A DNA stretch of 64,000 bases from Eledone cirrhosa (lineage: Eukaryota): contig OZ024741.1 in the NCBI GenBank assembly GCA_964016885.1, positions 117,304,001-117,368,000 on the forward strand. The letters are read 5' to 3'. Of this stretch, positions 27,817 to 32,237 are shown one piece after another; positions within the stretch are counted from its first letter, which is position 1; every line of letters starts with the position of its first letter. A program made the position numbers and the translations under genes. The notes beneath the pieces are model-generated. The model saw only the letters and a program-made list of their open reading frames with translations. It did no database searches and was not told the DNA's origin.

Positions 27817-28424
27817 TAGAATAGAATTAGGATGTAGCCTCAGGCATATCTGTATACAAATATTTATAGAAATTTTGTATTTCTAAAGAAACTCGGAATG
27901 TTTACAGGTAAACATTTAGAAAGCCGTAGCTACGCAAAAAACACCGGGGCTAACACGCCCTCTGTGACTGTCCAGCAGAGGCAATGGGGGACAATCGTCG
28001 ATGTATTTCTGACTGGCCCTCATCAGGACGATCCCAGCGATTGCTGGCCTTGAAAGCACTCAAAAATATATAGTTTTCTCGTCTGTGTAAATAAGCTATT
28101 TTATCTCATTTGGTTATGAAGCTGCATAAGTTGGGTGAACTTATGATAGAATAGAATTAGGATTTAGCTTCAGGCACAGCTGTATACAGATGTGTATAGA
28201 AATTTCGTATTTCTAATGAAACATTGTATGTTTACAGGTAAAACATTTAGAAAGCCGTAGCTATGCATTAGCCTCGATTCTTTTTGCATAGCTACCGCTT
28301 TCTAAATGTTTACCTGTAAACATTCCGTGTTTCTTTAGAAATACAATATATATATATATATATATATATATATATATATATATATATATATATATATATA
28401 TATATATTGTATTTCTAAAGAAAC
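27817..28424 (-). mobile_element. retrozyme-like element, 330-nt period plus inverted tail
   Basis: TAGAATAGAATTAGGAT... recurs at 27817 and 28147 (about 120-bp direct repeat); inverted segment 28281-28345; family shared with 31771-32237. Confidence 0.8.
27994..28032 (-). ncRNA. type I hammerhead motif
   Basis: Minus strand: atcgtc CTGATGA gggccagtca GAAA taca TC gacgat; perfect 6-bp stem I, weak stem II. Confidence 0.7.
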
Positions 28425-29227
28425 ATATATATATATATAAATGCATATATATATATACACACATATGAAGGTATACATTCTTACATACATACATAGAAAC
28501 AAGCAAACACATCTCTTCTTTTTCTTCACCAAAGGTGAAGCATTTCTTTTGCTTTTTCTATTGACAAGAATACATGCGGCTCGCCACACCTACATACCTA
28601 TAGGTTTCTCCACTAACTGGAGCAGCTGTCCCAACCTATTGTCGAATTAATAGTCGATCGTCTGCGAAGCCACTGGCGCTCACGACGCCGAGCTCATGTA
28701 ATTAAACTGTTGATCGTTTCATGAGTTATTTCTTATGATGTAACAAGCAGGATGTTTATCGAGGCTTACTCCTTCAGATCTGACATGTTCTGATAGACCA
28801 TCCTATGATCACTCTATCAGCGGCACCTAGTGTAGGATGTGGCTTTTCACCACCCAGGTTGGTCTTCGAACTGAGAAAGGCTAGGTGCTCAACTTGAATG
28901 AAGTTCTCTGAGTGGCTTGTTGAACAGACAGTGGAACTCAGGGGTACTCCACAAAAGACCATCCAGTGCCAACCAATAACATCTACTACAGCTCTACACA
29001 CACTAATACATACAACTGCACTAAAAACAAAGGATACTGCAACAGTAACAACAACAAAATCAGTAGTAGTAACAACATCAACAACAGCAACAATTGCACA
29101 CAAAAAGACAGGGCAACAGTAACAACAGCAGCAGAAGAAGTAACAACAACACTAACAAAAGAGACAACACCAGTTACAATAACAAAAGCAACAGCAACAA
29201 CAACAACAGCAACAATAGATAAAACAA

Positions 29228-29416
29228 TAATTGTTTCTACTTTAGGCACAAGGCCAGCAATTACTCAGTACATTACTGGTACTTTATTTTATCGACCTCG
29301 TAAGGATGAAAGGCAAAGTTAACCTCGGCGGGATTTGAACTCAGACTGTAAAGGGACGTAACTATGCTAGAAAGCATGGCGTCCAACCCTCTACCGATAC
29401 TGCCAATTCACCGCCC
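29228..29416 (-). mobile_element. SINE family A, full length
   Basis: Matches family consensus; ATAAAACAATAAT on both sides. Confidence 0.9.
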
Positions 29417-30481
29417 TTAGATAAAACAATAATAAGAATGAGACTGTGATGATATCAACTGTCATGGATATCAACAATATTATTATAGTGTTGAATTGTA
29501 GGCATACACACATACACACACTCACACACATATACATATATATATGTATATATATATATATATATATATATATATATATATATATATATATATATATATA
29601 TATATATATATATATATATATATATATATATATATATATATATATATATATATATATATATATATATATATATATATATATATATGCAAAAAGCAAACAG
29701 AAAAAAATAAAGGAAGCGACACAGTACAATGAAGAAATATATTAGTTTTACGCTTGATATACGAATATATATATGTATATATATAATATATATATATATA
29801 ATATATATATATATATATATATATATATATATATATATATATATATATATATATATATATATATATATATATATATATATATATTAATTTATATATATAT
29901 GTATATAGTTTATATATATATTAAATATGTGCCAAATATGTGCCTGGATACATTCCTGCCACTGTTTGAATACGCGTGTGTAAGAGCGTATACGTGTTTT
30001 GGTTATTGCTTATAGCAGTGTGTTTGTGTGTGTATTGTGTATATTATCTGTAACATCCAGAAGATCATTTTTCCACGACAGCCTGTGTGTTCATATGGAA
30101 AACATTAAAAGAGACTTCGTAGCCCGCTGTCCAAAGCTTGCCCCGTCACCCTCCACCACTAATGCTGTCCTGTAAACATCCGTTTGTTCACGTATGTTAT
30201 CATTTAGCTTTACCAGCCGACGTTTCAGTTTGAATTCGTTTCATCTCCCCCACTTGTTTTGATTTACCCCTATTTATTTCTTCATGCCTCCAACTCACTC
30301 ATCCCCACTCTACTTCGTTATCTATCTATCTATCTATCTATCTATCTATCTATCTATCTATCTATCTATCTATCTATCTATCTATATCTCTGTCTCTCTG
30401 TTTAACTATCTGTCTACCGATATATTTGTCTGTCTATATATATATATATATATATATAGAGAGAGAGAGAGAGAGAGAGAG

Positions 30482-30686
30482 AGAAATTAAAAGATGGTTA
30501 AAAGAGTTCCATGTATTTTATTATGCGCATTTCAAAAACAAATATTCACAAGTGTTTTTTTAAGCATCATATCATGTCTCCCTATTTTATCTGATGAGAA
30601 CGCAAATATCGTCCCAGGATGATATTTGTTTTTGAAATGTGCATAATAAAATACATGGAACTTTTTTAACCATCTTTTAATTTCTT
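30482..30686. mobile_element. fold-back element with hammerhead
   Basis: Inverted arms about 30482-30545 and 30622-30686. Confidence 0.8.
30583..30653 (+). ncRNA. type I hammerhead ribozyme motif with long stem II
   Basis: tattttat CTGATGA gaacgcaaatatcgtc-ccag-gatgatatttgttttt GAAA tgtgca TA ataaaata; 8-bp stem I; the inverted arm has palindromic TGCGCA. Confidence 0.85.
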
Positions 30687-30789
30687 CTTATATATACTCC
30701 AGTCCAATAAACTTTTGAGTGCTACTTATCCGATATTTGCATTGCTTTATTGTTCTACAATAAAACTCACCTCCTACATTATATATATA

Positions 30790-31135
30790 TATATATGAAT
30801 GTATATATAGTGTATTTTGCAATACACTGTATGCTTAATTTAAAGCATTTCGAAGACCTTACGCTATTGTTTTAGAGTAGTGACAGTCTCACTTACATTA
30901 ATTTTCAGCAAACAGGGGAGATAAAGCTGACAGAGCTCTGTTTCGCACTTTTTGGTGCTTATCAAAGCCAACTACTCATGTCAGAGCTCTGTCAGCTTTA
31001 TCTCCCCTGTTTGCTGAAAATTAAAGTAAGTGAGACTGTCAATACTCTAAAACAATAGCGTAAGGTCTTCGAAATGGTTTAAATTAAGCATACAGTGAAT
31101 TGCAAAATACACTATATATACATTCATATATATAT
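30790..31135. mobile_element. fold-back element (~150-bp arms) in (TA)n
   Basis: Arms 30790-30940 and 30982-31135. Confidence 0.85.
30925..30969 (-). ncRNA. type I hammerhead motif, core mutated
   Basis: Minus strand: ggct TTGATAA gcac-caaaaa-gtgc GAAA cagagctctg TC agct. Confidence 0.65.
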
Positions 31136-31279
31136 CGGTATTTCAGAGCACCAAATCTAATTATATATATATATATATATATATATATATATTTGTCTAT
31201 AAGTATGATTCCCTCTATATATATATGTATATATATATATATATATATATATATACAAGTGTGAATGTGTATGTATGTA

Positions 31280-31523
31280 CAGGGACGGTGGAAGCATTTC
31301 TGAATTCGGGTGGCCAAATTTGGACAATTTAGTTGTAGAGATTAGTTTAGCTCTTTGCACTCTAAGATGGTCAGAAACCTTCGATATGCGATAAACATGA
31401 CATGTACATAAATTGTAGCGCATATCCAAATAGATGTGTGTTTTGTTAGTTTGGGGAGAAAATATCATTATTGGAGGGGGGGCATGCACCCCCGCCCCCA
31501 TCCCCCCAGTTTCACCGTCACTG
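31280..31523. mobile_element. hAT-like MITE
   Basis: 14-bp imperfect TIR CAGGGACGGTGGAA / TTTCACCGTCACTG; subterminal GGGGGGGCATGCACCCCC; no TSD recognised. Confidence 0.5.
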
Positions 31524-31770
31524 AATATATATAATTTTAAAAAATGATGCTCCGTGCCCTTTCCTAAGTGGTCAATATATTGAGCTGCTTTGCATTTGGT
31601 AAAGAAACTGGTAATATACCCTATTTATTCATCTCATATATATATATACATATATATATATATATATATATATATATATATATACATATATATATATATA
31701 TATATATATATATATATATATATATATATATATATATATATATATATATATATATATATATATATATATA

Positions 31771-32237
31771 ATAGAATTAGGATTTAACTTCATGCATAAT
31801 TGTATACAGATATGTATTAGAACTTCGTATTTCTAAAGAAATACGGTATGTTTATAGATAAACATTTAGAAAGTCGTAGCTATGCAAAACACCTGGGCTT
31901 TCGCCCTCTGGTGGTGTCCAGCAGAAGCAAGGGGAACAATCGTCGATGCATTTTGAACTTAACTGGTACTCATCAGGACGATGCCTCCCACTCTTGCGAC
32001 TGCTGGACTTCAAAACAGGCGAGAATATATGGTTTGCTCGTCTGTGTAAATGAGGTGATTAATCTCATTTGCATATGAAGCTGCATAAGCTGGCTCAACT
32101 TAAAATAGAATAGAATTAGGAAATTGCAATACATATCTGTTTACAGCTATGCATGAAACTAAATCCTAATTCTATTCTATCACAAGTTGAGCCAACTTAT
32201 ACAGCTTTATATGCAAATGAGATTAATCACCTCATTT
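31771..32237 (-). mobile_element. second copy of the ~330-nt retrozyme-like family (339-nt period plus inversion)
   Basis: ATAGAATTAGGA at 31771 and 32110; inverted segment about 32127-32237; abuts (TA)n. Confidence 0.8.
31939..31982 (-). ncRNA. type I hammerhead motif (G12 mutated)
   Basis: Minus strand: atcgtc CTGATGA gtaccagttaagttc AAAA tgca TC gacgat. Confidence 0.6.

Follow-up and report, generated by a model that had tools for sequence, protein, structure and literature searches.

Two related loci in the window (the whole 64,000-nt stretch of DNA analyzed here, with positions counted from its first letter) quite probably represent old, inactive insertions of a non-coding, non-autonomous, self-closed element of about 335 nt, a retrozyme-type parasite of Penelope-like elements (PLEs). 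Judged by its letters, the hammerhead ribozyme of this element is real at the family level, being canonical in type, of type I and present once per unit. The anatomy of the insertions and their PLE-type junctions are seen directly in the DNA (Table 1), as are the order of the family size and the family-majority ribozyme letters in public contigs.

Table 1. Parts of the two insertions, with positions in the window.
Feature	Positions	Strand	Remarks
Copy 1 full unit, 330 nt	27816..28145	-	3' end adjoins (AT)/(AC) microsatellite
Copy 1 type I hammerhead	27994..28032	-	predicted cut between 28000 and 27999
Copy 1 partial tandem	28146..28267	-	last 121 nt of unit (unit 210-330), without hammerhead
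Copy 1 inverted 5'-truncated arm	28268..28349	+	unit 193-274, 74/82 identical
Perfect palindrome, 98 nt	28328..28425	.	98/98; 18 nt of copy 1 arm mirrored around (AT)n
Copy 2 full unit, 339 nt	31766..32104	-	3' end passes into (AT)n 31636-31770
Copy 2 type I hammerhead	31939..31982	-	predicted cut between 31945 and 31944
Copy 2 partial tandem	32105..32121	-	last 17 nt of unit
Copy 2 inverted arm	32111..32180	+	unit 270-339
Copy 2 tail, 57 nt	32181..32237	+	unit 1-57 after read-through of head-to-tail junction

Results

Structure of the two copies

The existence of a two-copy family with periods of 330 and 339 nt, as originally predicted, was borne out by the alignment of the two units, which are identical in 268 of 344 aligned columns and match each other within the window at a BLAST E of 9e-86. 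As also predicted, both copies exceed one period and then invert, copy 1 after a further 122 nt and copy 2 after 17 nt. The tandem piece of copy 1 is identical to its own unit at 107/122 positions and stands head-to-head with the inverted arm, which begins 17 nt upstream of the truncation point of the tandem. In copy 2, the tandem piece agrees with its own unit at 16/17 positions and with copy 1 at 17/17, and its overlap with the first 11 nt of the arm constitutes an imperfect microhomology at the strand switch. The inverted part of copy 2 as a whole (32111-32237, arm and tail) is identical at 110/127 positions, and the tail ends on the last base of a 7-bp hairpin.

An identical head-to-tail junction was found three times, in copy 1, in copy 2 and in the inverted arm of copy 2, and a 339-nt go-back joint was present in 2 contigs each of the public runs X1 and X2, which represent one sample; together, these observations indicate that the unit is fixed and closed on itself. 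The inverted arms diverge by 10-13% from their direct partners and are therefore old rather than fold-back artefacts. The 98-nt palindrome looks secondary, either a fold-back or an assembly artefact.

With respect to coding content, the longest ATG-initiated ORF on the hammerhead strand of the tripled unit encodes 35-37 aa, no ORF with reverse transcriptase (RT) and GIY-YIG endonuclease was found in the 330/339-nt units, and the pol III A or B box pattern is absent from both. Judged on size and ORF content, the units thus answer to the description of animal non-LTR retrozymes (non-coding, 150-450 bp, no LTR, PBS or PPT), and the original placement of their size in the range of these retrozymes (PMC7229834) was correct. 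Microsatellites adjoin both 3' ends, in a window that is itself rich in them (n=2). No secure target-site duplication was found at copies 1 and 2; a slipped duplication around copy 1 (27800-27817 and 28441-28467) was rejected, as it lies within a microsatellite.

The hammerhead motif

The elements ATCGTC, CTGATGA and GACGAT are the same in copies 1 and 2, as had been noted, and all are read on the minus strand, where a 14-mer given with these three elements occurs twice against 0.20 occurrences expected (at most 2 mismatches). Each locus holds one hammerhead per copy. In copy 1, all core boxes are present, with CUGAUGA at 28026-28020 and an intact GAAA; helix III reads AUACAU, a broken palindrome, and the pairing probability of stem I in a local fold is 0.02. 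Copy 2 carries CUGAUGA at 31976-31970 and a palindromic helix III, AUGCAU, and its hammerhead is borne on a long stem I extension (about 31915-32008); where GAAA is expected it has AAAA, a private change at 31954. The predicted difference in stem II was confirmed, since that of copy 1 is 5 nt shorter, lacks its 3' strand and cannot form, whereas that of copy 2, GUAC/GUUC, makes 3/4 pairs with one U.U mismatch. Both copies therefore appear to be disabled as ribozymes, copy 1 by its broken stem II and copy 2 by AAAA, and with one damaged hammerhead each neither locus would be able to release a monomer or circle.

A hammerhead-like descriptor, composed after the matches had been seen, gave 4-5 matches in the window versus 0.005-0.03 in 200 block shuffles, and a descriptor requiring a stem II of at least 3 bp gave 0 matches in the window, with both copies failing it. 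No Rfam family reached its gathering score anywhere in the window. Copy 1 had no Rfam hammerhead match at E<=10, and the sole one of copy 2 was to Hammerhead_3 (13.7 bits, E=2), below the gathering score; a search at E<=10 over 24500-33000 returned 106 matches, none of them a hammerhead at copy 1 or copy 2. The matches over that interval were mostly miRNA-like hairpin and microsatellite noise.

The greater conservation of the ribozyme relative to its flanks that the original prediction implied held weakly between the two copies: constrained ribozyme positions were identical at 24/25 sites versus 237/300 elsewhere (p=0.025), and the whole motif showed no clear difference (34/39 versus 227/286; p=0.18). 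Outside the ribozyme, the copies share five identical runs of 14-16 nt, and RNAalifold on the two units found double-sided changes in 0/71 pairs.

The wider family in public DNA

Comparison of public contigs and raw reads with copy 2 revealed a high-copy family. Three public contig sets contain 0.69-0.81 of 93 sampled words of the copy 2 locus and possibly derive from the source sample. At site 31954, the G of GAAA is carried by 145/165 and 109/135 of the raw reads; in the contigs (111 and 110), its share of the summed depth is 84% and 87%. A consensus of loose ends at 31953, to which X1 and X2 each contribute 31 contigs (agreement 0.82/0.79), gives CUGACGA in minus-strand reading, with a 4-bp stem II, AGGC/GCCU, and a loop CAGUCAA. 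It departs from the core only at position 7, a position left open in the published consensus CUGANGA. Relative to this family variant, two pairs in the stem II of copy 2 are changed on both sides (A-U>G-C and G-C>A-U), a third is broken and the fourth is unchanged; loop 2 reads CAGUYAA in copies 1 and 2 and in the family variant alike. These variant sites are among the best 40 of 187.

In other copies, the fixed 3' end is joined to unit positions 257, 213, 59 and 26, and the strand switches at four different places within the unit, each in single contigs. These junctions come from the best 15 of 98 joints and the best 12 of 30 in-between rows, and the joints are mostly single-contig ones at 80% likeness, a type that is often repeat-derived. 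No contig piece spans two hammerheads among the 16 pieces listed (there are 10,276 others). The summed contig depth at 31954, 8,143 against 2.7-13.7 per listed piece, is not itself a copy number and suggests about a thousand copies. Exact-pattern scans gave 0 matches in metagenome contigs and 0 in viral contigs, and no description of the 330/339-nt family was found in the literature on octopus and cephalopod hammerheads, Penelope and retrozymes.

Neighboring elements

An RT remnant of a Hydra-clade PLE is located at 20663-21016, and PLEs are thereby present in the same genome. Its identification relies on motifs of its homologues and on an Atlas lead with a score of 0.97, 33% of whose members carry PF26215; Pfam gave nothing above cut-off for the remnant or four of its homologues. 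The tblastn matches listed for 29 PLE-type proteins all fall within 20561-21055. The 3' piece of the remnant scored 20 against the unit, below the shuffled maximum of 32, so that a helper PLE is not linked by sequence, and comparison of the unit with five other repeats likewise gave no link (scores 20-31, shuffled maximum 32).

Discussion

Probable insertion by the PLE machinery

PLE insertions are marked by a partial tandem, an adjacent inverted and 5'-truncated copy, an optional tail and a (TA)n bias (PMC8557442; PMC3846280). The copies described here, together with other contigs, display a partial tandem (pLTR) that is fixed at its 3' end and truncated to varying extents at its 5' end; copies 1 and 2 both have the adjacent inverted, 5'-truncated copy at the 5' end; and the targets are (TA)n or other microsatellites (n=2, in a microsatellite-rich window). 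The tail is represented by one instance, the 57-nt extension on the arm of copy 2, the usual length being 30-40 bp. The tandem-plus-inverted architecture highlighted originally is accordingly no peculiarity of this family but the standard insertion structure of PLEs.

The insertion mechanism proposed here is drawn from published PLE biology, and its helper, template and cleavage are supplied by analogy. In this scheme, an autonomous PLE would supply an RT-endonuclease that binds an RNA longer than a single unit, derived from either a tandem master or a circle, and the endonuclease would nick AT-rich microsatellite DNA. Reverse transcription would have two preferred starting points inside the RNA, the unit end and +57 nt, the latter start producing the tail; in vitro, the PLE tail does mark two internal RT start sites (PMC11167929). 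The RT may then copy one unit and part of the next before halting, and an inverted, 5'-truncated second strand would finish the insertion by fold-back or a microhomology-guided switch. With its GAAA, its stem II of 4 bp and its palindromic helix III, the hammerhead of the family would most likely cut as a dimer in multimeric transcripts.

Circle or tandem template

A special case of this PLE-based reading, which we regard as a real possibility falling a little short of even, is a classical non-LTR retrozyme whose master arrays are cut by hammerheads and whose ligated circles of about 335 nt serve as the insertion template. The size and canonical hammerhead geometry fit, the unit junction is read through colinearly in three places, and the cut site is intact inside both insertions, as in a re-ligated circle. 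The copy 2 unit also folds strongly as a circle (z -6.2 versus 100 shuffles), but the opposite strand gives an equally strong signal (z -6.0) and copy 1 a weak one (z -2.5). An uncleaved tandem transcript accounts for the same marks, and hammerhead cleavage was dispensable for PLE insertion in vitro (PMC11167929); the distance between the unit ends and the cut site is 179-184 nt, so that nothing in the DNA marks cleavage, and no multimer was seen among the contig pieces listed.

Animal retrozyme hammerheads have a helix I of 6 bp, a helix II of 4 bp and a short palindromic helix III (PMC4209133), and under a working definition an active retrozyme has two units in succession, each with a complete hammerhead (Li et al. 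2026, bioRxiv 10.64898/2026.07.22.740005). The family has the type I core (CUGANGA, GAAA and UH in order) closed by helix I, with G in the family majority where copy 2 has AAAA, and a helix II of about 4 bp is found in the family variant (31 contigs each of X1 and X2) and not in copy 1. Copies 1 and 2 have one hammerhead per locus rather than two in succession. The original comparison with animal non-LTR retrozymes is thus upheld for size and ribozyme geometry, while both loci, single-hammerhead and damaged, fall short of the active definition.

That the family is a circRNA-producing retrozyme whose dispersed copies carry the full Penelope insertion marks, including the tail, is a tentative proposal and on balance doubtful. 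If true, it would provide direct junction-level evidence, in an invertebrate, of PLE enzymes mobilizing canonical-hammerhead retrozymes, would place two internal RT start sites roughly 180 and 240 nt downstream of the cut, and would allow the choice between circle and tandem template to be tested in a single family.

Other explanations

The copies could instead be 5'-truncated ends of an autonomous PLE with an internal duplication of about 335 nt in its 3' region, and no independent mini-element would exist. Most PLE copies are indeed 5'-truncated with a single terminal repeat, PLE hammerheads with a small palindromic helix III are known, and the 5' joins vary in other copies. We consider this explanation improbable because the tail of copy 2 is the start of the same 335-nt unit, whereas the tail of an autonomous PLE leads ORF-ward (PMC11167929; PMC3846280), the unit has no ORF, and, among the tblastn matches listed, the 29 PLE-type proteins have no similarity to either copy or its flanks. 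A dispersed satellite or fold-back repeat arising from DNA slippage, template switching or assembly error, with the hammerhead as a neutral relic, would suit the location of the copies in long microsatellites, the apparently secondary palindrome and the failure of both copies under the strict descriptor, but is very improbable given the divergence of the arms, the presence of the locus in three contig sets (possibly the source sample), the polarity of fixed 3' and variable 5' ends, which resembles reverse transcription, and the intact family-majority core and stem II.

Comparison with known systems

Like animal non-LTR retrozymes (PMC7229834; Li, Clavereau & Pollet 2026), the PLE-mobilized element favored here is a non-coding unit of 150-450 bp whose GC content stays under 50%; each unit bears a single type I hammerhead, in which helix I has 6 bp, helix II has 4 bp and helix III is short and palindromic. 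Both also have head-to-tail junctions and high copy numbers and share their genomes with PLEs. The present element differs in that its copies comprise 1.05-1.4 units with one damaged hammerhead and in being known here from DNA alone; the main text of PMC7229834 and of Li et al. 2026 does not mention inverted arms and tails. With EN+ PLE insertions and pLTRs (PMC3846280; PMC8557442; PMC11167929) it shares the partial tandem, the head-to-head 5'-truncated arm with short overlap, a candidate for the optional tail (seen once, on one arm, with its end at a stem-loop), the (TA)n targets and a hammerhead upstream of the 3' end, but it has no RT/GIY-YIG ORF, a self-closed 335-nt unit and a tail of 57 nt rather than 30-40. 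MRC1 of Chlamydomonas, a non-autonomous PLE (Craig et al. 2021, PMC8557442), is similarly short and non-coding, with pLTRs and head-to-tail insertions; however, the 3' sequence of MRC1-type elements is also found in a known autonomous family, and a hammerhead is missing from most Chlamys elements (PMC8557442). No such autonomous partner was identified for the present family. The minimal PLE pLTR hammerheads (Cervera & de la Pena 2014, PMC4209133) are also of type I, with a palindromic helix III implying dimer cleavage, whereas helices I and II of the family here measure the canonical 6 and 4 bp, with no additional nucleotide separating A9 from stem II.

The mobilizer of animal retrozymes has been argued from co-occurrence and pLTR similarity (PMC7229834; 10.64898/2026.07.22.740005), with homology and tree tests in Xenopus in the 2026 preprint (10.64898/2026.07.22.740005). 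A retrozyme-sized family with PLE-specific junctions provides a mechanistic kind of evidence on this question, structural in nature and modest. The advance is incremental, since hammerheads are widespread in PLE-related repeats, the architecture is textbook PLE and a second family occurs in the same window. This second hammerhead family, of 427 nt and unrelated, repeats the architecture, and its hammerhead seems nearer to the PLE variant than that of the 330/339-nt family.

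Organization of the two insertions

The original prediction that a hammerhead repeat is present twice with tandem-plus-inverted architecture was confirmed, as both copies carry a partial tandem and a head-to-head inverted arm. Read on the minus strand, copy 1 consists of the inverted arm, a 122-nt partial tandem (unit 210-330), the full 330-nt unit and a microsatellite, and copy 2 of the inverted arm, a 17-nt partial tandem, the full 339-nt unit and (AT)n. The two units are identical at 268 of 344 columns, and the head-to-tail junction is seen in three places, identical in each. 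In copy 1 the start of the arm lies 17 nt upstream of where the partial tandem is truncated. In copy 2 the arm and the tandem piece share 11 nt, after which the arm reaches the unit end and crosses the junction for 57 nt more, stopping at the final base of a hairpin. An assembly fold-back as origin of the arms was ruled out, because the within-insertion duplicates have diverged from their own units (107/122, 74/82 and 110/127 identical), which also indicates that both insertions are old. The sole such exception at these loci, a perfect 98-nt palindrome, may be secondary.

Features of the window (+, plus strand; -, minus strand)
Feature	Position	Strand	Remarks
Copy 1 unit	27816-28145	-	330 nt
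Copy 1 partial tandem	28146-28267	-
Copy 1 inverted arm	28268-28349	+
Copy 1 hammerhead	27994-28032	-
Copy 1 palindrome	28328-28425		98 nt
Copy 2 unit	31766-32104	-	339 nt
Copy 2 partial tandem	32105-32121	-
Copy 2 inverted arm	32111-32180	+
Copy 2 tail	32181-32237	+	57 nt
Copy 2 hammerhead	31939-31982	-
High-copy repeat fragment	32236-32359		adjoins copy 2 tail; >11,000 raw reads per RAD run
PLE RT remnant	20663-21016
Region of this Hydra-clade remnant	20616-21170		RT remnant, then 3' piece with half hammerhead-like motif and (TA)n
Inverted 3' piece	20616-20671		related to palindrome at 38788-38975
427-nt family	24859-25767, 56397-56886		loci 86% identical; tandem and inverted arms, (AT)n at ends
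Hammerhead motifs of 427-nt family	25159	-
	25332	+
	25759	+	partial
	56639	+
Inverted pair	5048-5150 / 5408-5510		93% identical; hammerhead-like motif (5115 -, 5443 +) and palindromic helix III region each
Palindrome, 146 nt	13690-13835		hammerhead-like motif 13769 (+); adjoins (AT)n
Palindrome, 350 nt	30787-31135		degenerate central hammerhead; partial Rfam HH9, E=0.056, 30929-30964 (-)
Weaker second palindrome	30482-30685
Isolated minimal-hammerhead-like core	22831		CTGAAGA, short stem II, GAAG; no second copy in window
SINE-like repeat, ~190 nt	29226-29417		about ten more sites; copies 80-95% identical
Possible LINE-type remnant	18418-18978	-	short frame resembling LINE-type protein
Possible LINE-type remnant	55517-55918	+	short frame; weak RVT_1 match, E=0.055
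27-mer array	7655-9186
Long minisatellite	43602-50498		25-mer x 276
Long minisatellite	59171-62507		13-mer x 257
Direct duplication	53389-54447		430 nt, 99.5% identical; recent event or assembly effect

Both copies agree with the marks of Penelope-like element (PLE) insertions described in the texts cited here, the 57-nt extension of copy 2 being a candidate tail, longer than usual and seen once. These comprise partial tandems truncated at the 5' end, next to which lies an inverted copy that is likewise truncated, an optional tail of 30-40 bp and a microsatellite bias (Craig et al. 2021, PMC8557442). An inverted pLTR (partial tandem) that shares 15 bp with its direct counterpart and bears a tail of 31 bp is another such case (Arkhipova et al. 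2013, PMC3846280). Additionally, PLE cleavage of AT-rich DNA has been described, as have two internal RT start sites, located within a stem-loop, by which the tail is defined; hammerhead cleavage was dispensable in vitro (Frangieh et al. 2024, PMC11167929). The unit holds no ORF and is closed on itself, and thus is non-autonomous; no long coding frame lies near either copy in the window. A PLE RT remnant 7 kb away matches 29 proteins, with Hydra-clade motifs in both of the matching proteins examined. Its 3' piece has no similarity to the unit and so points to no helper.

State of the hammerheads

Each locus carries one type I hammerhead, whose cut site lies 179-184 nt from the unit 3' end. A loose descriptor, composed after the motifs had been seen, gave 4-5 matches in the window, where 200 shuffles gave 0.005-0.03; under a strict descriptor (at least 3 bp of stem II) nothing in the window matched, and Rfam at gathering score recognised neither copy. 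Copy 1 keeps GAAA, with stem II absent, stem I pairing at a probability of 0.02, and the helix III palindrome broken, with no self-duplex. In copy 2, stem I is extended and well formed (0.78-1.0), helix III is palindromic (self-duplex -6.1 kcal/mol), stem II keeps three of four pairs (probability <=0.07) and AAAA replaces GAAA; changes at G12 disable hammerheads.

The expectation that the ribozyme is conserved beyond its flanks held for 25 constrained positions (24/25 identical between copies versus 237/300 elsewhere, p=0.025) and not for the entire motif (p=0.18). The latter value, together with five identical runs of 14-16 nt outside the hammerhead, makes this argument weak on two copies.

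The family in public DNA

Four of six public runs (DNA or unlabelled) were compared with positions 31771-32700 at 80% likeness. Matching contigs numbered 4,940 and 5,111 in two public sets (X1 and X2) from one sample, possibly the source, these counts including two other flank repeats, and contig depth spans the entire unit. At 31954, where copy 2 has the first A of AAAA, most of the family keeps the G of GAAA: it accounts for 84% and 87% of contig depth in X1 and X2, and occurs in 145/165 and 109/135 raw reads of two further samples. The loose-end consensus (31 contigs per set) reads CUGACGA, with AGGC/GCCU as stem II and CAGUCAA as the loop. Copy 1 equals this variant less five bases, and carries the majority letter at 9 of 14 in-unit majority sites among those listed; copy 2 stem II differs from it by two double-sided pair changes and one broken pair, with one pair unchanged. 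The majority G and the 4-bp stem II consensus indicate that the predicted family hammerhead is of canonical geometry, both loci being decayed members.

Among the joints listed (15 of 98, with 12 of the 30 in-between rows), a go-back of 339 nt occurs in two contigs in each set, the fixed 3' end is joined to unit positions 257, 213, 59 and 26, and the strand switches inside the unit at four places. As these are mostly single contigs at low likeness, each joint is weak evidence by itself; their polarity is concordant. No contig piece among those listed spans two hammerheads.

Relation to retrozymes

Cervera & de la Pena (2020, PMC7229834) define animal retrozymes as tandem repeats of 150-450 bp that carry type I hammerheads and are expressed as circles, and they name PLEs as candidate helpers. 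The canonical 6/4-bp geometry, and also cleavage as a dimer, are described in an earlier paper (Cervera & de la Pena 2014, PMC4209133). Li et al. (2026, bioRxiv 10.64898/2026.07.22.740005) argue for an origin of retrozymes as non-autonomous derivatives of PLEs, take two consecutive intact hammerheads as the criterion of activity, and regard solo monomers as frequent. The suggested retrozyme affinity stood in monomer size and geometry, which both copies match, but not in activity, since neither locus has two consecutive hammerheads. We file the copies as dead members of a retrozyme-type non-autonomous PLE family rather than as demonstrated retrozymes; that the family makes circles and has mapped PLE junctions is possible, if somewhat doubtful. 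Term searches of the main texts of PMC7229834 and Li 2026 and of a 2020 review gave no discussion of inverted arms or tails of retrozyme insertions, and supplements may differ.

Other repeats in the window

The 427-nt hammerhead family has no similarity to the 330/339-nt family; its like architecture, and the further hammerhead-like motifs within palindromes, make the 330/339-nt copies less surprising. Hammerheads were already known in a cephalopod genome, with 235 Hammerhead_1 loci catalogued in giant squid. The window is AT-rich, with abundant interspersed repeats and plentiful microsatellites (125 tandem-repeat rows).
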